A stretch of 64,000 nt of DNA from a virus (IMGVR_UViG_3300034065_000151:32001-96000), one strand, 5' to 3'. Positions 11,556 through 31,898 are shown, numbered from the stretch's first letter. Notes: generated by a model from the letters alone, not told the origin. Numbers and translations: made by a program.

Positions 11556-12133
11556 AGGTGGAATAATATCTTTTCAATTTCATTAACAGTTTGATGATGT
11601 TTAAGTATATCAAAATGGCCAGTAGCAATAGGGATTACTAATTCTGCACATCCTGCTTCTTGCGAATTTATGCTTATAATGCCATCATTTGAACCATTAA
11701 TGAATGGATTGAACCCTTTGGTGCTAATAAGTGAAGCAAATTTACCGGTTATACGCGGTTGTACAGTCATCTTCTTAATTGTCCCACTTTGTGGGGTTAT
11801 ATCATCTAACACACCATAATTAGGTAGGAAATACTTAGTCGAGAACAAACTATCACTTCCACCAAATGGTGCTGATATAGTTACTAAATCTTTAACTTTA
11901 ATATTAGGTTGTAATGTTATAAGGTGGCCTAAGATACCACCGAGACTATGACCAACAATTGATATCTCAGTATCTGTAGGAATCTGTGATAATACTTCTT
12001 CAAGAATATTATCAATATTTTTAGATCCACTATAACTAATAAAAGTAGATTTATGAACAGAAAGCATCTCATCAATTAAGTTGAAAACTTCGGGACCACT
12101 TGCCATTCCATGTATCCAAACTATATGGTTCAT
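11552..12133 (-). CDS. Alpha/beta hydrolase (lipase/esterase)
   Basis: WIHG, GHSLGG nucleophile elbow, SAPFGGS, NDGII, GH. Confidence 0.85.
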   Translation of the reverse strand: MNHIVWIHGMASGPEVFNLIDEMLSVHKSTFISYSGSKNIDNILEEVLSQIPTDTEISIVGHSLGGILGHLITLQPNIKVKDLVTISAPFGGSDSLFSTKYFLPNYGVLDDITPQSGTIKKMTVQPRITGKFASLISTKGFNPFINGSNDGIISINSQEAGCAELVIPIATGHFDILKHHQTVNEIEKILFHL

Positions 12134-12948
12134 TCGTCTATTTCTTCCTGGTCTATCTCTTTATAGTCTCGTATAGCATCACGTATAAAGTGCCATTGAT
12201 CTGCTTCAATCATTAATACAGGACCACCTACCCAAACCTCTTGTTCACCTAAATTATGATGAATATCTTTAGTTGTACAAACATCAAATTCTAAAGATTG
12301 TGGACTGTATGCCTTATAGATATCTGTTATAAATTGATTTGCAAATTCGTGAAGGGTACCCATATCATGAATTTCAAAAGCTTTTCTGAATACCTCAATT
12401 GCTTTTTCATCACCAGCTTCTAATTTACCAGCAAACTTTAAAAAACTTCTCCAACTTGATGGTTTAATTTCGGGAATATCTTCCCAATAGTCATTCATTC
12501 TGTTTATAGTGACAAATATACCAAATAAGGTTACTCTTGTTCTCCATAAATCATGACCACTACATACACCAATTTTTACACCATTATATGGAATAACAAC
12601 ATAAGGATCACCAAAACCTTGAGTATAATTAAGACGAGTTGAACAGACAAATGAGCGAGAACGTTTTGGGTATGCATTCATTAAAGGATTGTTATCCAAA
12701 ATGGTTGTATAGTAATTTGTTGTGTTTTCTGATTGACGACGAGTTAATGCTGGATTAACAGTATAGGCTTTATAGCCACCCAAACGTTGTGATTCACCAC
12801 GATACAATGGTTTATCTTTGATAGCCATCCATGTAGCATCAGAACATTTTGTTTTATAGATTTTAACAGCTTCATCAATGTCATATTTTTTATACATTGG
12901 GGTTTTTGTAATAGCTGCTTCGTCAAGGTATTCTTTAAATGTGATCAT
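12130..12948 (-). CDS. Putative R-S-E ADP-ribosyltransferase, subfamily A, capsid-targeting leader
   Basis: MITFKEYLDE; LYRG...PKRSRSFVCST...EQEVWV. Confidence 0.6.
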   Translation of the reverse strand: MITFKEYLDEAAITKTPMYKKYDIDEAVKIYKTKCSDATWMAIKDKPLYRGESQRLGGYKAYTVNPALTRRQSENTTNYYTTILDNNPLMNAYPKRSRSFVCSTRLNYTQGFGDPYVVIPYNGVKIGVCSGHDLWRTRVTLFGIFVTINRMNDYWEDIPEIKPSSWRSFLKFAGKLEAGDEKAIEVFRKAFEIHDMGTLHEFANQFITDIYKAYSPQSLEFDVCTTKDIHHNLGEQEVWVGGPVLMIEADQWHFIRDAIRDYKEIDQEEIDE

Positions 12949-13745
12949 GAAAGTTCTTCTTTAATATCTGCCCACATATTTAGCGAGATTAATAATACCG
13001 GACCACTTACCCACACTTCATTATTTCTGGCATCATGTGGAAAATCTTCAGTTGTGCAACATTCGAATCCTGTTTCTTCTGGACTATAAGCTGCCATGAC
13101 TGTTTCTAAGAAATCATTTCTGTGTTTATCTGCTTGTCCAAAACTGATAGCATGACCTAATCTGTTATAAGCAGCTTCACCACCAGCTTTAAGTAATTTA
13201 TCAAACTCAATCCATTTAGACCAGTCAGTTGAAGATAAATTTAAATCAGTGAATATAGTACGATTCATATTGGGTAAATTACGTTCTCTATTAAACAGAT
13301 TAATTTTAATATCCCAAATATCTTCTTCAGGTACTATCCCGATCTTAACTCCATTGTATGGAATCATTATCATAACATCATCAGTATTATGAGTGTACTG
13401 TTCAGCACGACCGAATGAGGTAGAAGCAATAAAACTTCTTGAACGTTTTGGATAGTCTTTCATACTAGGAATATTATCAAATATTAAAGTATAAAAGTTT
13501 GATGTATTTTGGCTAGCACGTTCTGTTTTAGATGGATCAACAGCTAAGCAACCAGTTTTATTTAATTTTTTAATTGTTGTTTCATTTCTTTCACCACGGT
13601 ACAACGGACGATCTTCACTGATCATCCACATTGCATCTCTGCAGTGACTCTTAATGGTTTTGATTGCGTCAGATAAATCAACGGGGCTATATTTCGGATC
13701 CCGTGTTTTGGCGCGCTCATTTAAAAAATCTTTAAAGGTTAGCAT
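12945..13745 (-). CDS. Putative R-S-E ADP-ribosyltransferase, subfamily A, capsid-targeting leader
   Basis: MLTFKDFLNE; LYRG...PKRSRSFIASTS...NNEVWV. Confidence 0.6.
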   Translation of the reverse strand: MLTFKDFLNERAKTRDPKYSPVDLSDAIKTIKSHCRDAMWMISEDRPLYRGERNETTIKKLNKTGCLAVDPSKTERASQNTSNFYTLIFDNIPSMKDYPKRSRSFIASTSFGRAEQYTHNTDDVMIMIPYNGVKIGIVPEEDIWDIKINLFNRERNLPNMNRTIFTDLNLSSTDWSKWIEFDKLLKAGGEAAYNRLGHAISFGQADKHRNDFLETVMAAYSPEETGFECCTTEDFPHDARNNEVWVSGPVLLISLNMWADIKEELS

Positions 13746-13746
13746 T

Positions 13747-14070
13747 TTATTGACGTGTCAATTCTTTCCAGTTTACTAAAGGCATAGTAAGACGGATACT
13801 ACCCTTGCTGTCAATAATACTAACTTGTTCATTGTCACCAAGTTGAACTTTATAGTCACCAGCTTTAGCGATTACTTTTGGTTCTTCTTTTGATGGTTCT
13901 GAATTTGGTGGAGGTGTTTCTTGTTCAGTGCCTTCAGGACCTTGTTGTGAAGTAGCAGAACCCTGTGGCATGCCACCTTGAGTCTGTTTATCTAAACTAC
14001 CATTACCACCTGGCATATCATCTTCAGCAAGCTGGGTTGTGATTGCAGTAAGTTCTTTTAAAAAATTCAT
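13747..14070 (-). CDS. Putative internal head protein
   Basis: MNFLKEL...QLAE leader; low-complexity middle. Confidence 0.55.
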   Translation of the reverse strand: MNFLKELTAITTQLAEDDMPGGNGSLDKQTQGGMPQGSATSQQGPEGTEQETPPPNSEPSKEEPKVIAKAGDYKVQLGDNEQVSIIDSKGSIRLTMPLVNWKELTRQ

Positions 14071-14081
14071 TGTATTTCCTT

Positions 14082-14387
14082 TTATTTTGGGGTCTCGAAA
14101 TCGAGCGGGTTTTCATCCTTAGGGATAAAATATAACTGCTTGGCATCAGCACCATTTGGTGGATCAACTCTTGCAAACTTCTTATTCAAAAACGTGAATA
14201 GACTTATAATCCATGCACCACCAACAGTATCAATGACCTTATGCTTTTCTTCATGAGCTTTCATTAAGATATCATCTTTAACATCAAGAATTGAAACCAC
14301 ATCAGGAACACCTAATAATTTTTTAGCCATGGCAGATGCCTGAGCTTGTACTGCAATTTCAACTAGATACTGTTTGAATGTAATCAT
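14082..14387 (-). CDS. Putative internal head protein
   Basis: MITFKQYLVE leader. Confidence 0.6.
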   Translation of the reverse strand: MITFKQYLVEIAVQAQASAMAKKLLGVPDVVSILDVKDDILMKAHEEKHKVIDTVGGAWIISLFTFLNKKFARVDPPNGADAKQLYFIPKDENPLDFETPK

Positions 14388-15190
14388 TTTCTTTCTCTAA
14401 CAACGCGTAAATTGGTAGCTTTAAGTTCAACTGTATCTGGATGATCTTCACCATCACGATCGAATTCAACAACAAAAGTCCTACCACCATCAATTGACTT
14501 ACCAACTTTAACAATAGTTGCTTCCCAACCCACTGCATCTTTTGGACCACTTTTAATCTTAACTCTTACACCCTTTTGGAATGGGGAAATATCATCAATA
14601 AATCCAGCAGATGCTTTTTTCTTTGCTACTGGCTTACCTTTGTTTTGTGATGACCAATGGCCTTTGTGAGCTTCATGTAATACTTTACCAGTACCTTCAT
14701 CAGCACCACCTTCTTCAGATGGGTCCCAAACACCAAAGCGACGATCGATACCAGGAACTTCTGCACTGACAGTCATCTTACCACCTTCCATACGGCCATT
14801 GAAACGCATCTTGGCAGCTTGGGTTGGATGGGATGTCTTAACAGCTTTCTTCCAATCATCAATATTCGTATATGTTACTTCTTCAGCAACTTTTAAAAGT
14901 TTTGCTTTAAAACCTTCAGCATATGAAGATACATCTTCTTTAACTTTTTTAGACTTGACTTTTTCACCAAGATCATCAATCTCTTGCTGCATCTTATTCA
15001 ATGTCTTTTCCAAATCTTTATAGGCTTTCTTCTCAGCAGTCAAATTCTTTAACTGACGCTGGAGCATGATAAACTTACGACGTTTATCAATAAGTGACTG
15101 GCGCATTAAGGCAATAGTATCCTCATTGGCTTTTGTAATAGCTGTTAGTTTGATAGCTTCATTAACTGGTTTGATATCACTGATTTTCAT
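14384..15190 (-). CDS. Putative internal head protein with C-terminal KOW/SH3-like domain
   Basis: Several (V/L)xE sites; coiled coil; FQKGVRVKIKSGP..VGWEATIVKV. Confidence 0.55.
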   Translation of the reverse strand: MKISDIKPVNEAIKLTAITKANEDTIALMRQSLIDKRRKFIMLQRQLKNLTAEKKAYKDLEKTLNKMQQEIDDLGEKVKSKKVKEDVSSYAEGFKAKLLKVAEEVTYTNIDDWKKAVKTSHPTQAAKMRFNGRMEGGKMTVSAEVPGIDRRFGVWDPSEEGGADEGTGKVLHEAHKGHWSSQNKGKPVAKKKASAGFIDDISPFQKGVRVKIKSGPKDAVGWEATIVKVGKSIDGGRTFVVEFDRDGEDHPDTVELKATNLRVVRERK

Positions 15191-15222
15191 AGTATCCTCA
15201 AGATTGGTTAATTATTTATTGA

Positions 15223-15921
15223 TTATGACAACAATTTAACCACATCTCGTGTGAAACCATCATTCCAATTGAGTGTGTAATATTCAGTACAATGGATCAT
15301 AATTTCCGGACCATCACCATCACCCATTGCTTTTTTCAAATCATGGTCGATATATGGGTTAACCTTTTCTAAATACTTTTTAATAATCTCGGCATACTCC
15401 TCGGAATCCACTGGTGGTAAGGAAGTACTTAATTGTAAAGCATGGGTGATATCACCATAGCCTTCACGATTTTCATCACTTCTGTTTTCTTTGCTTTTCT
15501 TATTATCAAAGAAACGGTAAGCATCAAGGATTTTTGGAGACCATACATATTTGTATTCTCCTATTGGGAATACTATAAAAGCATCTCCATATTCTTCGGC
15601 GACATGACGACGGCCAGTTGTAAATACGGCATTACTTCTAAATTTGATACCAAACTTACTTTTGAAATAATTATCCAATACTTCATGGATTTCTTCAGAT
15701 GAATCTGTTGGACCACGATTGGTTCTTACTTTTTGTGTTGAGAATGCAGGAAGTTGCATATGACCGGAAACCCCACGCCATAAAGTATGATCATCCATAT
15801 TATTATAAGAGAATCCACTTTCCTTTAGGAAAGGTTGACAGTTAGCCTTAATCAAATCAGCAACTTGTTGAGGAGTCTGCTTTTCTTCTTTTTCATTTAG
15901 GAATTGTTTAAATGTTATCAT
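15223..15921 (-). CDS. Putative ADP-ribosyltransferase, subfamily B, capsid-targeting leader
   Basis: MITFKQFLNE; LWRG...RSNAVFTTG..VAEEYG.AFIVFPIG...PEIMIHC. Confidence 0.6.
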   Translation of the reverse strand: MITFKQFLNEKEEKQTPQQVADLIKANCQPFLKESGFSYNNMDDHTLWRGVSGHMQLPAFSTQKVRTNRGPTDSSEEIHEVLDNYFKSKFGIKFRSNAVFTTGRRHVAEEYGDAFIVFPIGEYKYVWSPKILDAYRFFDNKKSKENRSDENREGYGDITHALQLSTSLPPVDSEEYAEIIKKYLEKVNPYIDHDLKKAMGDGDGPEIMIHCTEYYTLNWNDGFTRDVVKLLS

Positions 15922-16577
15922 AATAGTTCCAATACTCTTTCAGTAAATTTATCTGGTAGACGGCTATCATATCTCAATGCATAATAGCTATCACAGTGTA
16001 TCATTATTTCATGACGAGATACAATAGCTTTAGCTAATTCATTGCTTTTATATGGATTAACTTTTCTAAGGTACTCACCAATGTCATCAACATAATCATC
16101 ACTTTCTCTAGCAATATCTTTACCTAATACATCACACATATCAGGAATACCATCAGCTTTAGGTTGAGCAAAATATGAATAAGCATCTTCAATTTTAGGT
16201 GACCAAATAAATTTGAAATTACCAATAGGAAATACTAAAAATGCATGACCATAGTTCTCAGCAATTTTTTCACTGCCGGTGACAAAAAAGGCTTCTGATC
16301 TATATTCAACCCCAAACTTTTCATCAAAGTACTTATTGAGTTCATTATGAATATAGCGATTAGTATCAACCGGATCACGTTGCATCCAACGTGTTTGTTT
16401 TGAAAATATAGGAAGGTCTACATAATCACCAACTCCACGGAATAATGATGTATCATTAAGTTCTCGTGGATCAAAACCACTCTGTGCCAAAAATGAATGA
16501 CAGTGCTCAATTATTAATTCAGCAGCTACTTCTGGTGTTTGAGTTTCTTCATTTAAGAATTGGCGGAAGGTAATCAT
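15918..16577 (-). CDS. Putative ADP-ribosyltransferase, subfamily B, capsid-targeting leader
   Basis: MITFRQFLNE; LFRG...RSEAFFVTG..IAENYG...HEIMIHC. Confidence 0.6.
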   Translation of the reverse strand: MITFRQFLNEETQTPEVAAELIIEHCHSFLAQSGFDPRELNDTSLFRGVGDYVDLPIFSKQTRWMQRDPVDTNRYIHNELNKYFDEKFGVEYRSEAFFVTGSEKIAENYGHAFLVFPIGNFKFIWSPKIEDAYSYFAQPKADGIPDMCDVLGKDIARESDDYVDDIGEYLRKVNPYKSNELAKAIVSRHEIMIHCDSYYALRYDSRLPDKFTERVLELL

Positions 16578-17266
16578 AATAAGTCTAATACCTCTTTGGT
16601 AAAATCTATTTTTGCACGGTTACTCTTACCATAATATAAAGTATAGTAGTTTTCACAATGAATCATAATTTCAGAATCATGATCAATTGCTTTAGATAAA
16701 TTGGTATCTTTATAAGGATGTGTTTTTTCTAAATACTGTTTAATAGCTTTACAATAATTTCTGTTATTTGAATCTTCATCATGATCAATATATTCAATCT
16801 TATGACCAAATATTTCATGATAGTCATTCATAAATTCACGATTTTCAGCATCAAAGAATAGATAAGCATCCCTAATCTGTTCTGACCAAATATATTGATA
16901 ATTACCAATTGGGAATATTATATAAGCACACCCATAATCCCTGGCTAATGAACAGGAACTAGTAGCAAAGAATGCATTACTACGATAGTTAATTCCAAAT
17001 TGTTCCATAAAATATTCATTTAATGTTTCATGTTGAAGTTTACTTGTATCTTTTGGTTGACGATTCATTTCAACACGGTTTTTGTGGAATGCTGGAAGTT
17101 CTGCTTTGATCCCACGATATAATTCATGTTGTGGACCAAAACCTTTAAATCTACTTTCTTCAAGAAACTTGGCGCAGTCTTTTTTAATTTTTTCGGCTGC
17201 TTGCTCTGGTGTAAAGTCACCTAGTTCATTATCACCTTCATTTAGAAACTGTTTAAATGTAATCAT
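16574..17266 (-). CDS. Putative ADP-ribosyltransferase, subfamily B, capsid-targeting leader
   Basis: MITFKQFLNE; LYRG...RSNAFFATSS..LARDYG...SEIMIHC. Confidence 0.6.
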   Translation of the reverse strand: MITFKQFLNEGDNELGDFTPEQAAEKIKKDCAKFLEESRFKGFGPQHELYRGIKAELPAFHKNRVEMNRQPKDTSKLQHETLNEYFMEQFGINYRSNAFFATSSCSLARDYGCAYIIFPIGNYQYIWSEQIRDAYLFFDAENREFMNDYHEIFGHKIEYIDHDEDSNNRNYCKAIKQYLEKTHPYKDTNLSKAIDHDSEIMIHCENYYTLYYGKSNRAKIDFTKEVLDLL

Positions 17267-17907
17267 ACAGTCTCCATAAATGGTTTTACTAGTTCATTAT
17301 AAACAGAACCATTAAGATCAAAAATATAATATTCACCACACTTAAACATAATTTCATTTCCTGCACGCAGGCATTCTTTAATATCAGTATTATGATACCA
17401 TCTAAAGTGTTTTAATTTAGCTAACATTCTGTCCCAAGCAGATTCCATTCTTTTATCACCACTTGGATCATTTTTATTATCTATTGGGGTAGCATCTTTA
17501 GTATCCCAAAAAAAGCTTGTCATATCTTTAGATTCTTTATTAATACCACTTATCCATTCAAATTTTCCAATGGGAAATATTGCATATACTTTACCATATA
17601 CAGTTGCTACAGCATTATGTCCACTGGCAAATATCCAATTACGGATTGGCTCACCAAATTTTTCAGTAAAGAATTCATTTAGTTTTTTATGGATATAATC
17701 AGGAGTGCTCATTGGTGACCAACGGGCTTCCCATTTATTGATAGCCCAATTCTTAGTACCTTTGAAAGAAGCACCACGGTACATTACTAAATTACCTTGG
17801 GAACCCTTAAGTTCACCAAGGTAAAAAGCACAATCCTTTTTAAATTTATCTAAGTCAAAGTCATCAAAGGCTTTATCTTCAGATAAGAACTGTTTGAAAG
17901 AAATCAT
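17263..17907 (-). CDS. Putative ADP-ribosyltransferase, subfamily B, capsid-targeting leader
   Basis: MISFKQFLSE; MYRG...RNWIFASG..VATVYG...NEIMFKC. Confidence 0.58.
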   Translation of the reverse strand: MISFKQFLSEDKAFDDFDLDKFKKDCAFYLGELKGSQGNLVMYRGASFKGTKNWAINKWEARWSPMSTPDYIHKKLNEFFTEKFGEPIRNWIFASGHNAVATVYGKVYAIFPIGKFEWISGINKESKDMTSFFWDTKDATPIDNKNDPSGDKRMESAWDRMLAKLKHFRWYHNTDIKECLRAGNEIMFKCGEYYIFDLNGSVYNELVKPFMETV

Positions 17908-18611
17908 TCTTCGCCAAAGGAACCTATATGTTGATTCTTAAGACGAGTAATACCATTTCTTAAGTTGATTAGGAATTGTTCGATATCACCAATAGTTTGG
18001 GTCATATCTTTCCACTGAGTTTCAAATTCAGGAGTCCATGTCTTAGCTGACATCATCAAGTTACGACGATAACTAGTTACTTTATTTTTATTGTTTGGAT
18101 CTACTCTATTAAGTTCACTAACTAAATTATTATTTTCTTCTTCAAGTTTGTCAACCAAAGCAACAAGTTTTTCATCATTGACTTTAACTTTTTTTAACCA
18201 ATAGGTTAAAAGACCATGTGCATCTTGATGTTTAGCAACATCGATAACAGTATTCAAACCTTCAATCATTTTGTCTAAACGGAATTCTTTACGATCGACA
18301 CGTGGTAAGTACTTAGCCAAGATTGGTTTGATAAAGGATTCAAGATAGTCTTCAAGAGCTTTTTCATTTTCCTTACGATCACCCCATTTACCACTTAAGC
18401 CTTTAATAGCCAAAGCTTTAGGGAAATCACCATCATTGTAATAACGATAATAAGCACGGAAGATAGTATCTTTCTTTGCTTTTTCACCAGCCGTTAAAAT
18501 ACCCTTATCATACATCCATGACATAAGAGCATCAACCTTTTTAAGGCGACCTTCCCAAGCACGACCGGCAGAGGAGGCTTCATTTATTTGGTGCAATTCT
18601 TTAAGTAACAT
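17904..18611 (-). CDS. Putative internal head protein
   Basis: MLLKELHQINE leader; YYRYYNDGD motif. Confidence 0.55.
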   Translation of the reverse strand: MLLKELHQINEASSAGRAWEGRLKKVDALMSWMYDKGILTAGEKAKKDTIFRAYYRYYNDGDFPKALAIKGLSGKWGDRKENEKALEDYLESFIKPILAKYLPRVDRKEFRLDKMIEGLNTVIDVAKHQDAHGLLTYWLKKVKVNDEKLVALVDKLEEENNNLVSELNRVDPNNKNKVTSYRRNLMMSAKTWTPEFETQWKDMTQTIGDIEQFLINLRNGITRLKNQHIGSFGEE

Positions 18612-18698: not shown

Positions 18699-19058
18699 TT
18701 ACTTGTTTCTGTCCATAAATTCTTTGTATTTCTTTTTATACCATTCATGGGTATCCATATTCCCCCTTTTACCATAATCCATCAATAGTTCAATATATTG
18801 ATCAGTGGCATGTTCATCCTTTGAAATAGCCTTCTCTCCTTTGGGAAAGGGACCATCAAGAACTGTTTGTGCATATAAAAGAGCAACCTCTGCATCTTTA
18901 GCAAGTATATTTTCATGTTTCTTTAATGCAGCAGGATCATTATGGTATTTTTGCCATACCAATCTTGGTACTGTTTCATGTGCTTTATCATATCCATGCA
19001 CAGACTCTGGCTTATCATGAAATTTATAAAGGCTTGAATATAGATTATTACTTGTCAT
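18699..19058 (-). CDS. Helical-repeat family protein (LYxxH-P-HG family)
   Basis: Paralog of 19055..19570 and 44622..44876; YAQTVLDGPFPKGEKAISK unit. Confidence 0.65.
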   Translation of the reverse strand: MTSNNLYSSLYKFHDKPESVHGYDKAHETVPRLVWQKYHNDPAALKKHENILAKDAEVALLYAQTVLDGPFPKGEKAISKDEHATDQYIELLMDYGKRGNMDTHEWYKKKYKEFMDRNK

Positions 19059-19570
19059 GTGTCTTCTTCTTCTTTATCTTTTAAAAATTCTTTATATCTA
19101 GCTTTGTATATTGAACTACTATAAATTGCTTTTTCACCAGGTTCCCATGAACCACCAACCACATCTCGGGCATACAAATATGAACACTGGGCAGACTTTG
19201 CAATAGCTGCTTCACCAGCTGGAAACTCACCATCCAATACATCAATAGCATATTCTAATGCATGTGATGCACTTTTGGCAATAGCCGGTTCACCTTCTTT
19301 AAATCTTCCATGAACTACTTGCATTGCATATAAAGTAGAATATTCCGGATTGGTTGCAATTGCTTCTTCTCCTGCCGGGAATTCCTGACCAATTTCTTTA
19401 CGAGCATATTCATAAGCTAACTTTGGACTCTTAGCTATGACATGTTCATATTTTTTTAATTCTCTCGGATTGTTTTTATACTTATCCCATACTACTTGTG
19501 GAACTGTGGTTTGAGCTTTCTTGTAACCATGAATAGATTCAGGATCATTGTGGTGAGCATATAAGTTCAT
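19055..19570 (-). CDS. Helical-repeat family protein with about four 23-aa repeats
   Basis: Repeats of YA..V..G.FP.GE.AIAKS. Confidence 0.7.
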   Translation of the reverse strand: MNLYAHHNDPESIHGYKKAQTTVPQVVWDKYKNNPRELKKYEHVIAKSPKLAYEYARKEIGQEFPAGEEAIATNPEYSTLYAMQVVHGRFKEGEPAIAKSASHALEYAIDVLDGEFPAGEAAIAKSAQCSYLYARDVVGGSWEPGEKAIYSSSIYKARYKEFLKDKEEEDT

Positions 19571-19965
19571 ATTTCAGATTCTATTTCTTTTGATAAGGAA
19601 ATTAATTTGTTTAACTTAGCACCAGTACAATTTTGTGCACTAACTTCAACTGGTAACCATTTTTTCTTAGTCTGTTTTGCTGCAGCTGTTCTATGATGAC
19701 CATCAGTTAATGTAACTTTAGCAGTATTATTTTTATTAGCTTTATCATAATGATACGCAGTTACTTCAACTGGTTTATCATACTTCATATTCTTGGCAAC
19801 CTCATCTGATACTGACATTACTTCAGGTCTAAAATCCATTTCCGTCCGTTCAATAGCAGATACTGGAAGATACTTAATCTCAGAAATTATCCCACGATAA
19901 CCCTTATCATCTTCATAAGGGCCATGTAAAATAGCTTCACTAATAAACTGCTTGAATGTTATCAT
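19567..19965 (-). CDS. ParB/sulfiredoxin-like domain protein with capsid-targeting leader
   Basis: MITFKQFISE; KPVEV...LTDGHHRTAAA...WLPVEV. Confidence 0.7.
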   Translation of the reverse strand: MITFKQFISEAILHGPYEDDKGYRGIISEIKYLPVSAIERTEMDFRPEVMSVSDEVAKNMKYDKPVEVTAYHYDKANKNNTAKVTLTDGHHRTAAAKQTKKKWLPVEVSAQNCTGAKLNKLISLSKEIESEI

Positions 19966-20684
19966 GATCTATACCAGGATGATATCTTTTTATCTAAAGC
20001 TTCTTTAGTGAATACATCAGGAACCAAATACTTGGCCTTCTTTTCCTGTAATTCTTCTAATGTTCTTTTACCAACTGGATTACTAATTGGTTCATTATAG
20101 AATCCCTGTACTGCTTTGAAAGCTTTCTGCATAACCGCATCATCTAAACCATCAGTCGTGTTATCAATCTGTTTAAAGAAGTTTACTTTAGCCTTAAGGT
20201 ATTCCGCATTTTCTAAGTTCTTTTTATCAACAGTATGGATGAAGTCTTCATCAACATCTCGACCGGTTCTTGACTTGGCACGGGCAATGGCCGTATCAAT
20301 ATCTGTGTGTACAAATATTACACCGATATCATAACCAATAGATTCAAGGATACCAATACGATTTAAAATGTTGGACACATCATTAGAGGTTCCATCAATA
20401 AATAATGGAAGCATACTATCTAAGTAGTTTAGAAGTGTATTGTTGGTAATACGATGAGCTGAGTCTTTAAACTCATTCCAGTTTTTAGAGGTTGAGGTCT
20501 TCTTATATTTCTTGGCAAGATACTCGGTTGCTCTATCAGTATTGACAACTTTTGGTGATATTGAACCACTAAGCTGTTTAACAGTATAACTCTTACCAGC
20601 TCCTGGTAAACCAATAATAAAGATTGCCTTCATAATCCCCTTATCATTAACAGACTCGGCGATGAATTGTTTAAACGAAATCAT
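19962..20684 (-). CDS. P-loop kinase (zeta-toxin/AAA_33-like) with capsid-targeting leader
   Basis: MISFKQFIAE; IIGLPGAGKS, FIDGT, GYDIGVIFVHTDIDTAIARAKSR. Confidence 0.75.
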   Translation of the reverse strand: MISFKQFIAESVNDKGIMKAIFIIGLPGAGKSYTVKQLSGSISPKVVNTDRATEYLAKKYKKTSTSKNWNEFKDSAHRITNNTLLNYLDSMLPLFIDGTSNDVSNILNRIGILESIGYDIGVIFVHTDIDTAIARAKSRTGRDVDEDFIHTVDKKNLENAEYLKAKVNFFKQIDNTTDGLDDAVMQKAFKAVQGFYNEPISNPVGKRTLEELQEKKAKYLVPDVFTKEALDKKISSWYRS

Positions 20685-23370: not shown

Positions 23371-23378
23371 TATTTATA
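23371..23378 (-). promoter_or_regulatory. Late promoter TATAAATA
   Basis: Exact motif about 28 nt upstream of the 23343 start. Confidence 0.7.
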
Positions 23379-24527: not shown

Positions 24528-24555
24528 TAAATTTACACAAAATTTTGAGTTTTTT

Positions 24556-24584: not shown

Positions 24585-24585
24585 C

Positions 24586-26448
24586 TTAACTTGGTAAGGC
24601 TGTAGTCAAGGCTAATACTCGGATTGGGATGTAGATGAATTCAGTTGAAGTAACTGCATGAATAGCAACATCCATAAACATTTCATTTGCTTGAACAACA
24701 CTTGGTGGGTTATTTGATGAATTACATAAAGTAACGAAGTCATACAAACCACGTAAAGCCATGATACCGTTCAAGAAGCCATCAGCAGATGCTTTAAGGT
24801 TACCTTGGGTAATAACATCATTTGGTTCAAATACGAATGGGAATGAACCCTTACGAAGTTGACGTTTGATGTACATAACAAGACGAACCACATTAATACG
24901 ATCTAATGCTGAAGCTGCACCTTGTGAAGTCTTATTACCCCAAACAATCATACCTTGTCCTGGGAAGAACACGATAGGATTAATATTTGTTGGATACTGA
25001 TAAAGATTATCACGTTGACCTTGATTCAAATATGACTGAGTGAATGTGGTTGCTGTACCAAGAGTACCGGATACATAACCCAAATCAGAAACACCAGTAA
25101 CTGTACCACGTGTCAAACCTGCTGGAGCAAACCAAACATATGATTGATTATCACTGAAAGCATAAGTTCTTAATGCAATACCAGATGGAGCGATCGCAAC
25201 TAATGTACCATCAAGATTTGCTGCAAGACCCCATGGGTAGTAATAACCAATATTTGAAGAAGCAGCACGAGCAGCAGTCAATGCCCAATTAGCAGCTTGA
25301 TCTGGTGTTAAGTTACATGGAACTTCAGAAATTGTAAAGGCTTCATCATTGATTTCATCTGAAAGAGCTAACATATCAGTTGCAACTTCTGGATAACCAG
25401 GACATACAATAAGATTGTACTCATACAATTCAGAACGGACCAATGTGTTGCTATTGATTTCTGCAGCTAATGCAGTAACAATTGAAACACGTTTAGCAGC
25501 ATCATTTGCACCCAATGGGTTAAACAAATTAACTTGTGATAAAGTGATCTGAAATTCTGCGTTCACACCAAATGGTACTGAACCTTCAGTAATAAGAAAA
25601 TCAATTTGACTGTTACTAAATGGTGAACCAGCTGTTGCTGTACCACTTGGACCAGATACTGAACCTGTTACTGAGAATGTTGCTGGAGTCGCACCAACAG
25701 TAATTGATGTACATACAACTGACCAGATTTCAGGAATAACAGCAGATGCTGGAGTAATACCAGTCATGTTGCCATTGCCAGTTCCAGTGAATGAACTTGG
25801 AGCATATACTAAATCAAACTGGAAATAGTCATCACCAGAATATGGTGTTGAACCAGCATTGATAGTAAAGTTAACAGTAGTAGAAGTAAATGGGGTACCA
25901 ACGATACCTGTACCGATAATACCAGCATTAACACCTTGAACAGTGAAAGCAGTTGAAGAATTCATTACAACTTGAATTGTATCTAATTGAACAAATGCTG
26001 AAGTTGCTGTAATACCAGTGATTGTACCATTACCTACACCAACAAAAGTAGGTGTGTCATATGTTGGAACACCAGCACTAATAAATGTTTTTGCTGCATC
26101 AGTAAGGTCAATGTTAGCACGGACAACATATGCAAGATTACCAACTCCTATGAATTGATTCAATGCAAACAATCCGTATTCATTACGTGCATCACCGTGG
26201 AATTGATTTCCAGATGAATCGGCCATGAAATGTGGATTACCGTATAATTGAACGCTCTGACCAAGTGAAGTAACTGTGCGGATTACACCGTTTTCAGTCG
26301 TACCTGCAGCTGATGAAACACCATCAGGCTGTAATTTATTTGCCTGAGTAGCTATGAAAAGTAATGGAACAGTAGGTGCACTGGCCGGAATATAAAAACT
26401 CTGATCCGTTACGGGTACTGAAACTCCAGGTGATACAAGTGTAGCCAT
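24586..26448 (-). CDS. gp18: Tail sheath protein
   Basis: LVSPGVSV, WFAPAGLTRG, INPIVFFPGQG.IVWGNKT, ALDRINVVRL, FVFEPND, EFIYIPI. Confidence 0.95.
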   Translation of the reverse strand: MATLVSPGVSVPVTDQSFYIPASAPTVPLLFIATQANKLQPDGVSSAAGTTENGVIRTVTSLGQSVQLYGNPHFMADSSGNQFHGDARNEYGLFALNQFIGVGNLAYVVRANIDLTDAAKTFISAGVPTYDTPTFVGVGNGTITGITATSAFVQLDTIQVVMNSSTAFTVQGVNAGIIGTGIVGTPFTSTTVNFTINAGSTPYSGDDYFQFDLVYAPSSFTGTGNGNMTGITPASAVIPEIWSVVCTSITVGATPATFSVTGSVSGPSGTATAGSPFSNSQIDFLITEGSVPFGVNAEFQITLSQVNLFNPLGANDAAKRVSIVTALAAEINSNTLVRSELYEYNLIVCPGYPEVATDMLALSDEINDEAFTISEVPCNLTPDQAANWALTAARAASSNIGYYYPWGLAANLDGTLVAIAPSGIALRTYAFSDNQSYVWFAPAGLTRGTVTGVSDLGYVSGTLGTATTFTQSYLNQGQRDNLYQYPTNINPIVFFPGQGMIVWGNKTSQGAASALDRINVVRLVMYIKRQLRKGSFPFVFEPNDVITQGNLKASADGFLNGIMALRGLYDFVTLCNSSNNPPSVVQANEMFMDVAIHAVTSTEFIYIPIRVLALTTALPS

Positions 26449-26574: not shown

Positions 26575-27321
26575 TTATCCGGTAATTGTGGTATTGCCAA
26601 AACTGAAACCTGGTGCAAACGGAATTGATTGTCCATTCTCATCAAACTCATTAAACTGTAATCCAGCTGTATCACCCATCCTGATTGTGATTGATCTGAC
26701 AATTTCATTTTTAATATCCATTGGGGCAGATATATAAATTGGTATCTCAAATGCTAAGGACCATAAAATAATTCTACGATCGCCACCAGGAGGATAGTTT
26801 TCTTCATTTGTCATCCCGGTTAATTCAACTGTAGTAATCTTTGTCCAATCAAAAGCCACATCATTAATCTGTATCTGTAATACTGGATCAAACATCATCA
26901 TCAATTGTTCTAATATCTGATGCATTTGCTGTTGATTAGAAGCATATATCGATAACTCACAATTCATAATATATGGAATCGGCATTACTCTTTCAGCAAC
27001 TCTTAAATCATCAGGGAATACTCCACCTTCAGGTAAGTAAGTTTTACGATCTATTACACCAATACCTTTTCTATGTGGAGCCATATTAAGACCTGTCATA
27101 GATAAAGCCATTTGTGGTAATGAGAAAGGTTTATTCTGGGTATTACCAGCACCAATAGCAGCAACCACTCGGTCACGACTACCAAGACTAATTGGTACGG
27201 TCATCATTTCTGCTTCACCACAAGTACCTTTACCTGTTTGAACTTGTAAACCTGCAAAGACATTTGCTACTTGTAATAAGTATTTTCTGATTTGACCATC
27301 ATAATAATAAAAATTAATCAT
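26575..27321 (-). CDS. gp15: Tail terminator / sheath stabiliser
   Basis: YYYDGQIRKY, VPISLG, MPIPY, QILEQLMMMFDP; start MINFY (ATGA overlap). Confidence 0.82.
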   Translation of the reverse strand: MINFYYYDGQIRKYLLQVANVFAGLQVQTGKGTCGEAEMMTVPISLGSRDRVVAAIGAGNTQNKPFSLPQMALSMTGLNMAPHRKGIGVIDRKTYLPEGGVFPDDLRVAERVMPIPYIMNCELSIYASNQQQMHQILEQLMMMFDPVLQIQINDVAFDWTKITTVELTGMTNEENYPPGGDRRIILWSLAFEIPIYISAPMDIKNEIVRSITIRMGDTAGLQFNEFDENGQSIPFAPGFSFGNTTITG

Positions 27322-29228
27322 ACTTTCCCTCCTAATGGGACTCGTGTTGCTGATTGCATAATACTTCTGATTGAAGGTTTTGCAGATGTGTATAAACCAC
27401 GTTTGTCTTGTTCTAAGAATAACCAAGCATTTTTAACTGTTGAGAAACGATATAAACGTGGTGCAATAACAGTTTCAGGTGGATAATATAAACGGAAATA
27501 AGCACCATCAGCAACACCTGCGATTGGTGGTAAAGTATAACCTTCAGTATATGGTTCTCCATTTTTTGGCAAACCATCTTCAATATACAAGTTAGGTGTG
27601 CTTCCAACTGGAGCAGATAGTGGTTGACCAGATGGATTTCTAGGAGGTGGAGCAATATACTCTACAATACCTGCAATTTCCTGTCTATCATCGGAACCAA
27701 CTTCTGGAACAGCATCAGCTGCATTCTTGATTATCTCTTCTGTATTGGTTAATGGTAATGTATCAATTTGCTGACCTACACCATTTGTAAACAATGCATC
27801 AGCAATTAAATATTTCTGAGTATCCATCGTACCAAAAATATCTCTGGTTTCCTGTGATGGTAATGCTTGCTGACCTGAAAAACGATAAGTGGTTGGGTTA
27901 TACAATGGACCAAATCCAGAACTCTGCCAAGCAGCATCAGTTACTTCCAAGAACTTACGGATAGGTAATAAGTTCTGATCATATTGCATCTCTGGTATAA
28001 CTTCAATAATATCTCCAACAACTATAGGACGACCTAAAGCTTTTACCATAGTTGCAAAGGAAACAACAAATGTATATTGTTCGAGAATATTAAGACCGAA
28101 GCGGGCAAGGTCACTAACAGAGTCTGCTGGTGAATATTGGGCTTTAAGTGGGATTGGAACCAATCCATATTCACGATCACGATTTTCATTAAAGAATAAA
28201 TCTTGAATATTATTAATTGTGGTTGGCATTTCATCAAGTACATCAAATGCAACTACTTCCCAGCTACCAGTTCCAGTGAACATGGTAGGGGTTACCATAA
28301 TAGCTTTAACTTTTAATAAAGTATTAAGATTAAGAGTTTGTGGTAATGGTGATTGAACCATATTATATAAACCAACACGTTTCCAATTATAATTAAGTGG
28401 AACCATAAACATATCACCAACAGCAAAGGGAGTCGATCCAGAAGCTATTGTTAAATTAAGGAAGGTACTATAAAATGGAATATCAGATGTCAAGGTTCCC
28501 AAATTAATAGTTGTACTATCAGGCAAGGTAGCATACACATTAAAGGTCATTGAAGAAATTGCAACTATATTAATAACACTTTGAGTTGCATCAGAACCAA
28601 TACCATTAGTAGTAAGTACACCATTACCGGTTCCAGAAAAGAAAGTAATGCCGGGAGATACATCTCCAGAAGTAATTTCAACTTTAACCTGTTGTGCAAA
28701 TTGACCAGGGTTATTTGATTGTGTTAAATTGATAGCACCAACACTTACCCATTTTTGAGCTTCTGGTTCATATTCAGTACGACCATTAGCAAGTAATTTA
28801 ATACCAAAGTCAACACCGACATAAGCAGTATTAGTAACTGCAGAACCTTGTTGGGAAGACCACCATGATTGTCCTGGTTGATTTAAACCAGTTAATGGAT
28901 AACCTGGATATGAGGTAGAACCAATTATGCGGCCTTGTGATAATACAGAACCATTTCCTTGTTGGTGAATACCAAGTAAAGGATAGATATTAAGGGGAGC
29001 ACCTGAAATATTAATAGTTTCAGCAACATAAGTCTGCTGATTGAGTGCTTCATTTTGTGCACATATATCTGGGTTAATACCTGTAATCTGCCAGTCACCA
29101 ATCGGTAAGGCAGGTGGAACATATGGTTTTAATGCAGTATTATTCAAACCAGTTTGAGCTGGAGGTGCATTGGGATTGTTTAAACTACCCCCACCATTTT
29201 CACAAGGTAATGTTGGTTGTTGTATCAT
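27318..29228 (-). CDS. gp14: Neck protein gp14-like with large insertions
   Basis: ETINISG, IQDLFFNENRDREY, DLARFGL, RPIVVGDIIE; position between gp13 and gp15. Confidence 0.7.
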   Translation of the reverse strand: MIQQPTLPCENGGGSLNNPNAPPAQTGLNNTALKPYVPPALPIGDWQITGINPDICAQNEALNQQTYVAETINISGAPLNIYPLLGIHQQGNGSVLSQGRIIGSTSYPGYPLTGLNQPGQSWWSSQQGSAVTNTAYVGVDFGIKLLANGRTEYEPEAQKWVSVGAINLTQSNNPGQFAQQVKVEITSGDVSPGITFFSGTGNGVLTTNGIGSDATQSVINIVAISSMTFNVYATLPDSTTINLGTLTSDIPFYSTFLNLTIASGSTPFAVGDMFMVPLNYNWKRVGLYNMVQSPLPQTLNLNTLLKVKAIMVTPTMFTGTGSWEVVAFDVLDEMPTTINNIQDLFFNENRDREYGLVPIPLKAQYSPADSVSDLARFGLNILEQYTFVVSFATMVKALGRPIVVGDIIEVIPEMQYDQNLLPIRKFLEVTDAAWQSSGFGPLYNPTTYRFSGQQALPSQETRDIFGTMDTQKYLIADALFTNGVGQQIDTLPLTNTEEIIKNAADAVPEVGSDDRQEIAGIVEYIAPPPRNPSGQPLSAPVGSTPNLYIEDGLPKNGEPYTEGYTLPPIAGVADGAYFRLYYPPETVIAPRLYRFSTVKNAWLFLEQDKRGLYTSAKPSIRSIMQSATRVPLGGKV

Positions 29229-30115
29229 TCGTCACTTTCTTCATAATCTTTCGGATCATGTTTTACATACCATTGCTTTGGGATATATTCTTTTACAAAT
29301 TCTTCTAGGGCATCATTTTGTGCCATACGACGAAGAAGTCCTTCAAATCTCAAAAAGGCACATTTACCTTGTACCCAGATTTCATTATCGTGACCACCAA
29401 ATGAAGCAGAACCTGAAACAACATGACTAAAACCGTTCTTGGTAGGATCCATTCCATTTTCAAAAAGATCATATAGTGTTCTAAACCCATGAGTTTTAAA
29501 TGCTTGAAGGTATTTTTTCCATTCTTCACGTTTACCGGTTTCAGTATTTAAATCATCTATTAATTCAAAGGTAACTCTTTTTAAACAGCTACATAAAGCT
29601 GCATAGTTTTTATGAGCCATATTATATTCAGACAAATGCTCACGCTTATTTGCGGCCATAATAAGGTCTTGAACATCAGACATAAAACCATCCATACTTC
29701 TACCGGTCATGCGATCGATATAATCAAAGCCATACCATAAATCATCACCAGCAATGATACCAATTTCTGAACCATCTGCTGGAATAATTAAATGGACATT
29801 ACCAAAACCACCTGCCATATCATTGTTAGTACTACAAATATAAGACTTAGAACGTTTCGGATAATCTTTCCATGCAGGATTGTTATCCATCCAAATTGTG
29901 TAATAGTTTACAGTATTGGCGGATTCCCGATTTAAACTGTTAGTATCAAAAACCCCCATTTTTATGCTCATTGGCATACCACGAAATATAGGACTCTTTT
30001 TAATCTGTGGTAGATATTTTGAGGCATTAGTTTCACACCACTTCACAAACAGATCGGGTTCCATCTCGGTGTGGGCAAACTGGTCTTCATTTAAAAATTG
30101 TTTGAATGTTATCAT
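29225..30115 (-). CDS. Putative R-S-E ADP-ribosyltransferase, subfamily A, capsid-targeting leader
   Basis: MITFKQFLNE; IFRG...PKRSKSYICST..AGGFG...DNEIWV. Confidence 0.6.
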   Translation of the reverse strand: MITFKQFLNEDQFAHTEMEPDLFVKWCETNASKYLPQIKKSPIFRGMPMSIKMGVFDTNSLNRESANTVNYYTIWMDNNPAWKDYPKRSKSYICSTNNDMAGGFGNVHLIIPADGSEIGIIAGDDLWYGFDYIDRMTGRSMDGFMSDVQDLIMAANKREHLSEYNMAHKNYAALCSCLKRVTFELIDDLNTETGKREEWKKYLQAFKTHGFRTLYDLFENGMDPTKNGFSHVVSGSASFGGHDNEIWVQGKCAFLRFEGLLRRMAQNDALEEFVKEYIPKQWYVKHDPKDYEESDE

Positions 30116-30957
30116 TATCTATCCAACATGTATTTAGTCATAAAATCTTCGAGTACTTCATTGTCACTTTCTTCAAGGCCATCTTCACTATATTTAAGGA
30201 TGCCACAAGTACCTTGAATCCATACTTCTTTGCTAGGACCTGGATTTTTATAGGTTGCTCCAGTTTCAACATCAAAGCCATTTTGTAATGGGTTGAAACC
30301 TAACTGCATTAAATCAAATAAGTTGTCACAGCCACTACGTTCAAAAGCAAGTAAGAAGTGTTCAAAATCTTTTTTTCTTGTTAGGTTTTTGGTAAGGTTT
30401 TTTAATGTTACTTTTTTCAAACACTTAACCAATGCTTTATAATCCATTTGAGCATTTTTAAATTCTTCTGTTTCTTCACTATCTAATTTCATTACCAGAT
30501 GAATCCAGCTATTAAAATTATCAAGGGTGGAATAGTTACCCATACCCATTTTCTTAAACAAGTATTTAAAGGACATCCACAAATCATATTCTGGACAGAT
30601 ACCAATCTTGGCATTATCAGCAGGGATAATTAAAAACGTATTATCATTACCATAGCTACTAGCAGTAGTTAAATTGGTAGAACAGATAAAAGACTTAGAA
30701 CGCTTCGGATACTCTTTCCAAGCTGGATTGTTATCAATCCAAATTGTGTAATAATTTAAAGAGTTAGCAGACTTACGGTTTAAACCATTAGTATCTGAAA
30801 TTCCCACTTTGGTTTCACCAGGCATACCACGATAGATATGTTTGTCCTTAGCACCATTTAAATAGGCACTAGCATTAGTTTCACACCACTTAACAAACTC
30901 TTCTGGTGAAACATCTCTAGTAATATCTCCATTAATAAACTGTTTAAATGATATCAT
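30115..30957 (-). CDS. Putative R-S-E ADP-ribosyltransferase, subfamily A
   Basis: MISFKQFING (E>G); IYRG...PKRSKSFICST..ASSYG...SKEVWI. Confidence 0.6.
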   Translation of the reverse strand: MISFKQFINGDITRDVSPEEFVKWCETNASAYLNGAKDKHIYRGMPGETKVGISDTNGLNRKSANSLNYYTIWIDNNPAWKEYPKRSKSFICSTNLTTASSYGNDNTFLIIPADNAKIGICPEYDLWMSFKYLFKKMGMGNYSTLDNFNSWIHLVMKLDSEETEEFKNAQMDYKALVKCLKKVTLKNLTKNLTRKKDFEHFLLAFERSGCDNLFDLMQLGFNPLQNGFDVETGATYKNPGPSKEVWIQGTCGILKYSEDGLEESDNEVLEDFMTKYMLDR

Positions 30958-31898
30958 TTAAAACTCACATGATCAAAGTGTTTCTTTAGGAATTCATTAA
31001 TAACATCATGTTGTTTAATTATCTTGCCACCCATTGGATTTTCTTCTTCATCTTCTTCAGTCTCATCATTTTCATCTTCACTCTCAATTTTAAGAATGGC
31101 ACAATTTCCCTGAATCCAAACCTCTTGATTTGTTGGGGGTGGACGATATCCATGACCAGTATAAACTTTAAACTTGTTTACTTTTGGATCAAAGCCTTTC
31201 TGGAATACTTCATACATACTTGTGTAGCCATATTTTTCAAAGACTTTAACAGCATCCATAAATCCGCCTTTTGTTTTTTGATTGGCTTCTTTAAGTGACT
31301 CTAAAGTAACTCGCTTTAAACAACTACATAAGGCGGCATAATCATTTTCTATGTTCTTATAATCTGGATCATTCTCACCTAATACTGCTTCAAACATTTT
31401 TTGAAAATCATTCATATATTCTTCTAATGTTCCACGATATTTTGGATCAGCATCAAATATTTTATCCAACTGTTTAAAGCCATACCATAAATCTATCTCA
31501 GGACATACACCCATTTTGGCATCATCTGCCGGGATAATTAAAAAAGTACTTCCATAACCCATCTCGGAAGCACTATTAAAAGAAGTAGCACAACATAAGG
31601 ATTTGGAACGCTTTGGATAATTTTTCCATTCAGGATTATTATCCATCCAAATAGTATAGTAGTTATAAGTGTTCAATGATTTACGGTTCAATTTGTTAGT
31701 ATCACAAAGACCAATCTTAATATCTTCTGGCATACCACGAAAAAGCATTTTATCTTTGGAACCCTTAAGATAATGAGTAGCATTGGTCTCGCACCATTTT
31801 ACAAAGGCTTCAGGGCTTATAGATTGTGTAACCCCTTTAGCTGGGCCATATCTACTTGCTGATATGTCTTCATTTAAGAACTGTTTAAATGTTATCAT
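30954..31898 (-). CDS. Putative R-S-E ADP-ribosyltransferase, subfamily A, capsid-targeting leader
   Basis: MITFKQFLNE; LFRG...PKRSKSLCCATS...NQEVWI. Confidence 0.6.
   Translation of the reverse strand: MITFKQFLNEDISASRYGPAKGVTQSISPEAFVKWCETNATHYLKGSKDKMLFRGMPEDIKIGLCDTNKLNRKSLNTYNYYTIWMDNNPEWKNYPKRSKSLCCATSFNSASEMGYGSTFLIIPADDAKMGVCPEIDLWYGFKQLDKIFDADPKYRGTLEEYMNDFQKMFEAVLGENDPDYKNIENDYAALCSCLKRVTLESLKEANQKTKGGFMDAVKVFEKYGYTSMYEVFQKGFDPKVNKFKVYTGHGYRPPPTNQEVWIQGNCAILKIESEDENDETEEDEEENPMGGKIIKQHDVINEFLKKHFDHVSFK

Follow-up and report, generated by a model that had tools for sequence, protein, structure and literature searches.

The locus

The stretch of DNA considered here, called the window, comprises 64,000 nucleotides (IMGVR_UViG_3300034065_000151:32001-96000) and is part of an IMG/VR virus record of 140,766 bases (the contig), which is ~40% complete by the CheckV estimate. 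Positions are counted from the first letter of the window. The window encodes the late structural module of a T4-superfamily myovirus, and within this module lie nine paralogous genes whose products share a ten-residue leader and are predicted to contain the core fold of the ADP-ribosyltransferases (ARTs). The nine open reading frames (ORFs), which belong to two subfamilies, A and B, are encoded by the minus strand and arranged in three tandem blocks, within which the stop codon of one gene overlaps the start codon of the next:

12130-12948, minus strand: subfamily A paralog 1, 272 amino acids (aa); leader MITFKEYLDE; phrog_12810 E 5e-34; A profile E 5e-73
12945-13745, minus strand: subfamily A paralog 2, 266 aa; leader MLTFKDFLNE; A profile E 9e-71
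15223-15921, minus strand: subfamily B paralog 1, 232 aa; leader MITFKQFLNE; phrog_11975 E 5e-38; B profile E 2e-75
15918-16577, minus strand: subfamily B paralog 2, 219 aa, the modelled B protein; AlphaFold2 predicted local distance difference test (pLDDT) 93.2, predicted template-modelling score (pTM) 0.89
16574-17266, minus strand: subfamily B paralog 3, 230 aa; B profile E 6e-70
17263-17907, minus strand: subfamily B paralog 4, 214 aa, the most divergent member; leader MISFKQFLSE; B profile E 2.5e-61
29225-30115, minus strand: subfamily A paralog 3, 296 aa; phrog_12810 E 3e-43; A profile E 6e-96
30115-30957, minus strand: subfamily A paralog 4, 280 aa, the modelled A protein; leader MISFKQFING; AlphaFold2 pLDDT 89.6, pTM 0.88
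30954-31898, minus strand: subfamily A paralog 5, 314 aa; A profile E 8e-89

An earlier sequence-only reading of this DNA had described nine paralogs in three tandem blocks, five of A and four of B. All nine are present where it placed them, and a profile search of all contig ORFs found exactly these members (A=5, B=4) and no others. The motifs that it listed recur in every one of the nine when they are aligned: [LIM][YFW]RG; then R-[SN], a hydrophobic strand ending [ST][TGS], A..[YF]G and [IF]P; then a variable helical stretch and a terminal E[VI][WM][VIF]. The columns invariant across the nine are R50 and G51, the Arg-Gly of the first motif, R96, the R of ‘RS’, P120, which closes the ‘I.P’ strand, and E237, the Glu of the last motif.

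Profile comparisons confirm that A and B are homologous subfamilies, with a similarity well beyond chance. Aligned to each other by hhalign, the two profiles score a probability of 98.5% (E 1.5e-15). In searches of all contig ORFs, the five A members are recovered by the B profile (E 1e-8 to 1e-11), and three B members, but not the fourth, by the A profile (E 1e-6 to 1e-9). The six other leader-bearing ORFs are missed by both, and so the cross-matches are not due to the common leader. With the leader removed, the paralogs share only 12-48% identity (mean 29%) and are therefore old, diverged duplicates; the body of the most divergent B member, 17263-17907, is 29-32% identical to those of the other B proteins. 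The A members match the first ~260 positions of phrog_12810 (E 1e-29 to 1e-45) and the B members match phrog_11975 (E 1e-23 to 1e-38) and phrog_15932, all annotated as being of unknown function. Family alignments were built from 23 sequences for A and 50 for B, 73 relatives in total. The A profile finds 4335 cluster representatives (50% identity) among 1.84 billion at E<=0.001, of which 2257 remain at E<=1e-30. The nine genes are two related branches of a very large, unnamed, phage-specific family.

A common leader on unrelated cargo

All nine paralogs start with a near-identical ten-residue peptide, consensus MITFKQFLNE. The same leader is found on 15 ORFs in total, all on one strand between 9941 and 31898, and on no further ORF of the contig. 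Six of the 15, located between 9941 and 20684, are not homologous to A or B:

9941-10285, minus strand: GNAT acetyltransferase domain, leader MKTFKQFITE; PF13673 E 1.3e-7, above the curated cut-off
10282-10827, minus strand: leader-tagged ART-PolyVal-like (YHG-type) protein; PF18760 E 3e-6, 28.5 bits, just under the 31.2-bit cut-off
10824-11555, minus strand: 243-aa leader-tagged protein with a YYHGT motif; no family match
14082-14387, minus strand: 101-aa leader-tagged protein; no family match
19567-19965, minus strand: 132-aa leader-tagged protein with weak DNA-binding/ParB-like hints; weak phrog_21912, DUF1015 and PFIN matches
19962-20684, minus strand: zeta-toxin/AAA_33-type P-loop kinase, leader MISFKQFIAE; PF06414 E 1.5e-8, PF13671 E 1.9e-9

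The alignment of the kinase to phrog_12810 covers positions 255-458, and the A domain takes up the first 260 of that profile. The YYHGT motif of 10824-11555 resembles the neighbouring ART-PolyVal-like gene, and this protein may, to judge from its sequence, be a further His-type ART. It was considered as a tenth member of the family and rejected, as hhalign against the A profile aligned the leader only.

The leader is far better conserved than what follows it, with an average identity of 71% across the 15 proteins versus 29% for the bodies of the nine paralogs. Its codons differ at synonymous sites, and selection therefore acts on the peptide. All but one of the 15 leaders have [LIV]-x-E as their ending, with the Glu at residue 10. 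Across the family, [LIVMF]-x-E with the Glu at residues 6-14 occurs in 83-84% of representatives versus 2-37% in other 14-residue windows of the same proteins.

These leaders have the length, the aromatic and aliphatic positions and the ending of the capsid-targeting sequence (CTS) of phage T4; one reads ...FIAE and another starts MKTF.... The T4 CTS, MKTYQEFIAE, is removed by a single cut beside the tag and packages any protein fused to it (PMC8442874). The T4 internal proteins that carry it are diverse defence proteins with the CTS alone in common (PMC3012670), and it is the protease gp21 that cleaves propeptides of this type off Alt and the internal proteins (PMC5694885). A counterpart of gp21 is encoded in the window:

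41511-42125, minus strand: gp21-type prohead serine protease, the presumed leader-cleaving enzyme; PF03420 Peptidase_S77, E 4.4e-25

The window thus contains what is expected of CTS-directed cargo, namely a tag of ~10 residues on unrelated proteins, an L/I-x-E ending and a gp21-type protease gene. The likeness to T4 IPI, IPII and IPIII extends to the aromatic-aliphatic-x-Glu end of the ten-residue tag and to its presence on unrelated, fast-evolving cargo. However, the T4 internal proteins are small, highly basic and non-enzymatic and are encoded by three genes, whereas the 15 tagged genes here encode larger, mostly acidic proteins with enzyme folds. A basic, DNA-condensing role like that of the T4 internal proteins was rejected for the nine paralogs because the isoelectric points (pI) of the mature proteins lie between 4.9 and 5.9 in eight of the nine.

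A leader confined to one strand within 22 kb could, in principle, be a nucleotide-level feature, for instance a translation-initiation region, that was copied by duplication or conversion and has nothing to do with packaging. This explanation is hardly credible, given that the peptide is kept while its codons vary, that it is present on non-homologous proteins and that it resembles the T4 CTS in length and in its F-[IL]-x-E ending. Furthermore, the Agrobacterium phage Atu_ph07, discussed later in the text, uses a different leader on the same families, and its homologues are found in virions.

Other N-termini in the region are also of note. An alpha/beta-hydrolase of 193 aa (11552-12133, minus strand; lipase/PGAP1-like; PF07819 E 1e-6) lies inside the tagged array without a leader and starts MNHIVWIHG. 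The ORFs 13747-14070, 14384-15190, 17904-18611, 35795-36244, 39382-40164 and 40167-41012, all on the minus strand, have other short N-termini with L/I/V-x-E, such as MLLKELHQINE, MKLLKELMVLSE and MKVSQLLNE. Such head-module ORFs may encode further substrates of the protease, or core or scaffold proteins.

Predicted fold and candidate catalytic site

One structure per subfamily was predicted with AlphaFold2 from the family alignments, and both models were compared exhaustively, using VIA-align, with 48,161 PDB representatives. Chains of the ART superfamily account for ~37 of the 50 rows listed for A and ~40 of the 50 listed for B, and a second look at the structural matches placed 17 of 17 rows in that superfamily. 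The ART structures among the listed matches include Arr, BC2332, diphtheria toxin, DarT, PARPs and Tpt1/KptA; the BC2332-like proteins are a SCOP family within the ADP-ribosylation superfamily (PMC3000352). On these matches, the predicted structures have the split beta-sheet of the ART core. Because the models are confident and the structural lists are dominated by ARTs, the conserved core is considered to adopt a divergent ART fold, a conclusion that is well supported at the level of predicted structure.

The sequence-only reading had called this fold by motif and had proposed a comparison of AlphaFold models with ART structures by Foldseek. The exhaustive search bears out the call for both models, but the Foldseek part of the comparison did not, as Foldseek found no PDB match at E<=0.001 for either model and the ART pattern emerged only in the VIA-align search. 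Against the viral library BFVD, Foldseek returned uncharacterised relatives only, with ART-PolyVal-like proteins at a non-significant E of 0.2-0.7. A protein atlas gave only viral ‘hypothetical protein’ clusters. Of those with a name, DUF2441 (score 0.83) and an ART-PolyVal cluster (TM 0.36/0.45) came nearest, and both count only as leads. Pfam did not match any of the nine paralogs. An hhalign comparison of the B profile with the local ART-PolyVal-like protein reached 21% probability over 27 weakly aligned columns of the strand-2/‘A..YG’ region and is suggestive only.

In both models, the YRG motif lies on predicted core strand 1. Predicted strand 2 holds a hydrophobic run ending in Ser/Thr (F-I-C-S-T in A and F-F-V-T-G in B) and is followed by a short helix and the ‘A..YG’ turn. 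Two more predicted strands end in the conserved Pro, the helical insert comes next, and the invariant Glu, Glu244 in the modelled A protein and Glu190 in the modelled B protein, then opens predicted strand 5 as E-V-W-I or E-I-M-I. In order and placement, the Arg, Ser/Thr and Glu of the models would correspond to the Arg/His, Ser/Tyr and Glu/Asp positions of ARTs. Three residues do not vary in either family alignment (n=23 for A, n=50 for B): the Glu, the second Arg and an Asp after strand 4. The Arg of YRG is likewise constant in A, and in B its conservation is at least 90%. The counterpart of the S-T-S motif is C-S-T in A and only [TS]-[GS] in B. The conserved Glu is single in both subfamilies, with no E-x-E pair. 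Subfamily A has extra invariant basic or polar residues in the stretches RKSANT, NYYT and PKRS.

The helical insert that separates strand 4 from strand 5 has ~95 residues in A and ~55 in B. It is real and, as had been proposed from the sequence, variable: the frequency of the top residue is 0.28 (A) and 0.23 (B) in the insert versus 0.56 (A) and 0.48 (B) in the beta core. A helical surface is where the protein varies most, and this is one of the points that would suit packaged pseudo-enzymes or binders, injected to inhibit host defence stoichiometrically as T4 IPI* does, with the ART-like scaffold as a frame and the insert as the binding surface. Those T4 internal proteins that bear a leader of this kind act as inhibitors and not as enzymes (PMC3012670), and no sequence link joins the family to any catalytic ART family. 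This explanation is nevertheless unlikely. The two Arg residues, the Asp and the Glu are invariant or nearly so over more than 4000 clusters at 50% identity and occupy the ART catalytic strand positions, which is typical of an active site rather than a scaffold, and the neighbouring cargo consists of recognisable enzymes (GNAT, kinase and the ART-PolyVal-like protein).

The sequence-only reading had also called the R-S-E arrangement cholera-toxin-like. What stands is the predicted position of the three residues, with Arg on strand 1, Ser/Thr on strand 2 and Glu on strand 5. The nearest structures, however, are on the Arr, BC2332, diphtheria-toxin and DarT side and not among the cholera-toxin-like enzymes, and a cholera-toxin-like clade is accordingly no more than a candidate assignment. 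Even the nearest structures are distant. The scores against Arr and the BC2332-like proteins (SCOP d.166.1.6) are low, with sequence identities of 9-14%, and both differ from the paralogs in having neither a helical insert of 55-95 residues nor a targeting leader. Arr uses His-Tyr-Asp and acts on an antibiotic; BC2332 has no known function.

These structural neighbours bear on the chemistry. The paralogs might be packaged enzymes of ART fold with a non-classical activity: DarT- or Tpt1-like on DNA or RNA, Arr-like on a small molecule, or hydrolytic towards nicotinamide adenine dinucleotide (NAD) or a NAD-derived immune signal, instead of ADP-ribosylation of proteins in the manner of cholera toxin. 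The position of Arr, BC2332, Tpt1/KptA, DarT and the diphtheria-toxin/PARP side as nearest structures, rather than the cholera-toxin or C3 group, points this way, and the RKSANT, NYYT and PKRS stretches of subfamily A resemble the multi-Arg sites of the RNA-directed Tpt1. The A domain is moreover fused to a zeta-type kinase in some relatives, and some members of this kinase class act on NAD or nucleotide sugars. However, nothing in the data discriminates between substrates, and the acidity of the proteins (pI 4.9-5.9 in eight of nine) does not favour nucleic-acid binding. A non-classical activity is considered quite unlikely.

Relatives and virion evidence

Few cultured giant phages gave a match to the family. 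By tblastn it was found in Atu_ph07, Ralstonia phage RsoM2USA and Salicola phage SCTP-2, and also in uncultured huge phages, and in every annotated record found it is called hypothetical. In Atu_ph07, eleven A and B homologues (gp53-gp63) are encoded in tandem, with a leader that differs from the one in the window and yet is equally uniform, M[RK]W[EHQ]QL[TN]E. RsoM2USA has three A paralogs between the neck genes and the gp15 homologue, with leaders MTFKAFLQE, MTTFKEYLTE and MKLEDLFE, plus one B-like match. In a metagenomic relative (L003), A and B members lie between the gp13, gp15 and sheath genes, and a leader MITFKQFLDE is found on an Amidoligase_2 enzyme (L003:12628-13809; PF12224, E 1.5e-9), so the cargo repertoire differs between phages. 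As the leaders of the relatives differ on the same families, the leader co-varies with the phage and not with the cargo, which is expected if it must fit the phage’s own core and protease.

An indication of packaging comes from Atu_ph07. In its published virion proteome, determined by electrospray ionization tandem mass spectrometry, all eleven of gp53-gp63 were detected, with 3-31 unique peptides and 12-46% coverage (PMC6102473 Table S5). Genes were mapped to proteins by size and order, and the protein masses agree with the annotated genes. Presence in the virion is thus a finding on the homologues in Atu_ph07 only; for the uncultured phage of the window it would be expected by analogy. The sequence-only reading had invoked T4 Alt as a precedent for one virion-packaged ART; the CTS-type leader, the gp21-type protease and the virion proteomics of the homologues together strongly reinforce that proposal.

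Domain fusions in the same phage are also informative. Atu_ph07 gp53 is a fusion of the A domain with a Zeta_toxin kinase and gp63 combines a B domain with a weak GNAT match, and these partners, kinase and GNAT, are separate tagged genes in the window. Polyvalent injected proteins show this pattern, and ART domains are the modifying domains most often found in them (Iyer et al. 2017; PMC5512222).

A model for the nine paralogs

The account considered probable, with a confidence that is moderate rather than high, is that the nine proteins are loaded into the head, processed at the leader and injected, and that they combine an ART-type catalytic core with a variable insert that selects the substrate. 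Each protein would be made late as a precursor with a ten-residue leader of the T4 capsid-targeting type, and the leader would dock it on the prohead scaffolding core. The gp21-type protease would then cut the leader off after the L/I-x-E motif, and the mature, acidic protein of 23-34 kDa would remain inside the head with the packaged DNA and pass into the host when the genome is ejected. There, each paralog would most likely use NAD+ to modify a different target. The putative catalytic site would consist of the Arg of strand 1, the Ser/Thr at the end of strand 2 and the Glu at the start of strand 5, and the fast-evolving helical insert would select the substrate. The nine are part of a larger group of at least 15 leader-tagged cargo proteins, a group whose members, each with one domain, would correspond to the domains that polyvalent injected proteins combine by fusion. 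Five elements of this account are observed: the paralogy of the nine, the class of fold predicted for them, their leader, the gene for the protease and, for homologues, presence in virions. The fold class and the packaging route are well supported; leader cleavage, ejection, NAD+ chemistry, the class of substrate and the targets are inferred.

Several points weigh against this account. None of the Pfam ART models matched any of the 73 family members even at E 10, only a few scattered singletons being found, and the family profile returned low-complexity helical noise only from PDB sequences; these negatives speak against the family belonging to any named one and leave the fold untouched. That the triad lies in the cleft is judged from secondary structure only, and subfamily B lacks a true S-T-S motif. 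The leader of 30115-30957, MISFKQFING, has Gly in place of the terminal Glu, the only tagged protein of which this is true, and it might be left uncleaved or be cut at a later site. The Atu_ph07 virions were purified with polyethylene glycol, and some of the proteins detected in them could be contaminants. Finally, neither a Macro domain nor an Alt-type ART (PF03496) was found on the 40%-complete contig.

A bolder version of the favoured account can be entertained only with more doubt than belief. Here, A and B would be a previously unnamed ART clade among the most abundant classes of phage-injected enzymes. In giant T4-related phages, one portable tag would direct a customisable arsenal of at least 15 enzymes to the head, and the variable insert of each ART paralog would aim it at a host target or defence system of its own; nucleic acids and NAD-derived immune signals may be among these.

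Comparison with known systems

T4 Alt is an ART that is loaded into a T4-type prohead core, trimmed by gp21 after I/L-x-E and injected to modify host proteins (PMC5694885; PMC5512222), and its order of Arg, Ser and Glu on strands 1, 2 and 5 is the one predicted for the paralogs. There is, however, no detectable sequence similarity between them, and PF03496 is absent from the contig. Alt is a single-copy protein of ~70 kDa, whereas the nine paralogs are of ~25-35 kDa and carry a ten-residue leader of the internal-protein type. Furthermore, Alt belongs to the Alt/VIP2 clade, while the nearest structures of the paralogs are Arr, BC2332 and diphtheria toxin, not the C3/VIP2 group.

The polyvalent proteins and their ART-PolyVal domain (PF18760, Tox-ART-HYD2 clade) are similar in that predicted virion-delivered ART domains occur alongside GNAT (PMC5512222). 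A and B are likewise fused to a zeta-type kinase and, by a weak match, to GNAT in other phages, and an ART-PolyVal-like gene with the same leader is part of the same array. ART-PolyVal differs in having a His-Tyr-Asp site (PMC5512222) in place of the Arg, Ser/Thr and Glu of A and B, which have no Pfam match. In addition, a polyvalent protein is one giant polypeptide, whereas the genes here are separate and each product has its own address tag.

The ejection or inner-body paralogs of phiKZ-like phages, such as gp53 and gp54 of SPN3US, are also diverged proteins with conserved N-termini that are cut after Glu (ALE, AQE) by a gp21-related protease, stored in the head and ejected (PMC5694885). Unlike the paralogs, they have propeptides of >100 residues and no reported ART fold, and they come from another phage lineage.

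Head-packaged ARTs such as T4 Alt, CTS-tagged internal proteins and virion-delivered combinations of ART, GNAT and kinase were therefore already known or predicted. Surveys report, where they treat jumbo myoviruses, that ARTs are common in them and are probably packaged (PMC9503650, PMC7824862). Survey supplementary lists aside, no prior description of the family as an ART or of CTS-tagged ART arrays was found in the literature, and the only publications found to join the CTS with ARTs were reviews of T4 and SPN3US.

The locus unites three themes, the head-packaged ARTs, the tag-directed internal proteins and the polyvalent injected proteins, in what looks like a battery of putative host-modifying enzymes in a giant uncultured T4-related phage. 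A predicted fold and a delivery route are given to a very large ‘hypothetical’ family that comprises 4335 clusters, has no Pfam model and matches only PHROGs of unknown function. Giant T4-related phages carry expanded arrays of this family, with 9-11 diverged copies. Should catalysis be confirmed, the family would define a new ART clade and offer a tractable system, with cultured relatives in Atu_ph07, RsoM2USA and SCTP-2, for the reprogramming or disarming of the host in the first seconds of infection. It would also be a natural example of a modular capsid cargo tag, of a kind already used in T4 protein delivery.

Genomic context and expression

The remaining features of the late module that bear on the paralogs are as follows:

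22051-23343: tail tube
23371-23378, minus strand: T4-late-promoter-like TATAAATA box upstream of the tail-tube gene, at the head of a long same-strand run that includes the B block and the first A block
24586-26448: tail sheath
26575-27426, minus strand: gp15-type tail sheath stabiliser, bounding the neck-proximal paralog block; PF16724, E 1.4e-38
31901-33826, minus strand: neck protein (gp13-like / Ad2 adaptor), directly upstream of the block of A paralogs 3-5; phrog_211, E 1.4e-42
36431-37708: major capsid protein, Gp23-type; PF07068, E 1e-94
42271-43908: portal, Gp20-type

By its capsid protein, the phage is closest to giant phages, RsoM2USA (63%) being followed by a Stenotrophomonas phage, Xanthomonas phage XacN1 and the Rak2-like group. 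At the DNA level, the 20-kb region has no megablast match among 50,697 phage records. The gp15-type gene, the true start of which is probably downstream of the listed TTG, has the same synteny in RsoM2USA and L003, and the L003 gene syntenic with the neck gene carries PF26809 Phage_T4_gp13.

The location of the genes within a late structural module, between neck, gp15 and tail genes and with conserved synteny, together with the status of their homologues as virion proteins, could suggest that the proteins only build the head core or neck or help to assemble them, do nothing once ejected and bear a leader that simply marks association with the scaffold. This is very unlikely. The paralogs are multi-copy and fast-diverging and their number varies, with nine here, eleven in Atu_ph07, and three neck-proximal A and one B-like in RsoM2USA. 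Structural parts do not behave in this way. Fusions join the domain to kinase and GNAT domains, homologues also occur away from structural modules, for example in L004, and a conserved polar constellation is present on an enzyme fold. A structural role thus fits the data poorly, as does a leader without a targeting function.

The TATAAATA box is not over-represented overall, with 10 matches versus 9.4 expected, and its placement alone is informative. Nine of the ten boxes are on the coding strand, and those checked are just upstream of gene starts, including those of the tube, portal and glycosyltransferase genes. The leader-tagged genes are downstream of such boxes in tightly packed same-strand runs, a placement that would fit late expression together with the head genes.

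Neighbouring genes

A glycosyltransferase-like gene of the GT4 family (34486-35691, minus strand), with weak Pfam matches that are all under the curated cut-offs, lies between the major capsid and neck genes and is preceded by a TATAAATA box at 35730-35737. Two adjacent small paralogs (18699-19058 and 19055-19570, minus strand) share an N-terminal stretch, ...PES[VI]HGY.KA..TVP..VW.KY.N.P..LKK.E.., and have neither the leader nor a family match. Directly downstream of the cargo array, a 294-aa ORF (8985-9869, minus strand) matches PF03237 (E 3e-15) over the N-terminal ATPase part only of the T4-type large terminase. Just downstream of the tail-tube gene, tandem paralogs (21148-21594 and 21572-22048, minus strand) contain a TnsA-like endonuclease N-terminal domain (PF08722, E 5e-16 and 1e-19) and may be duplicated head-completion-nuclease-like genes.

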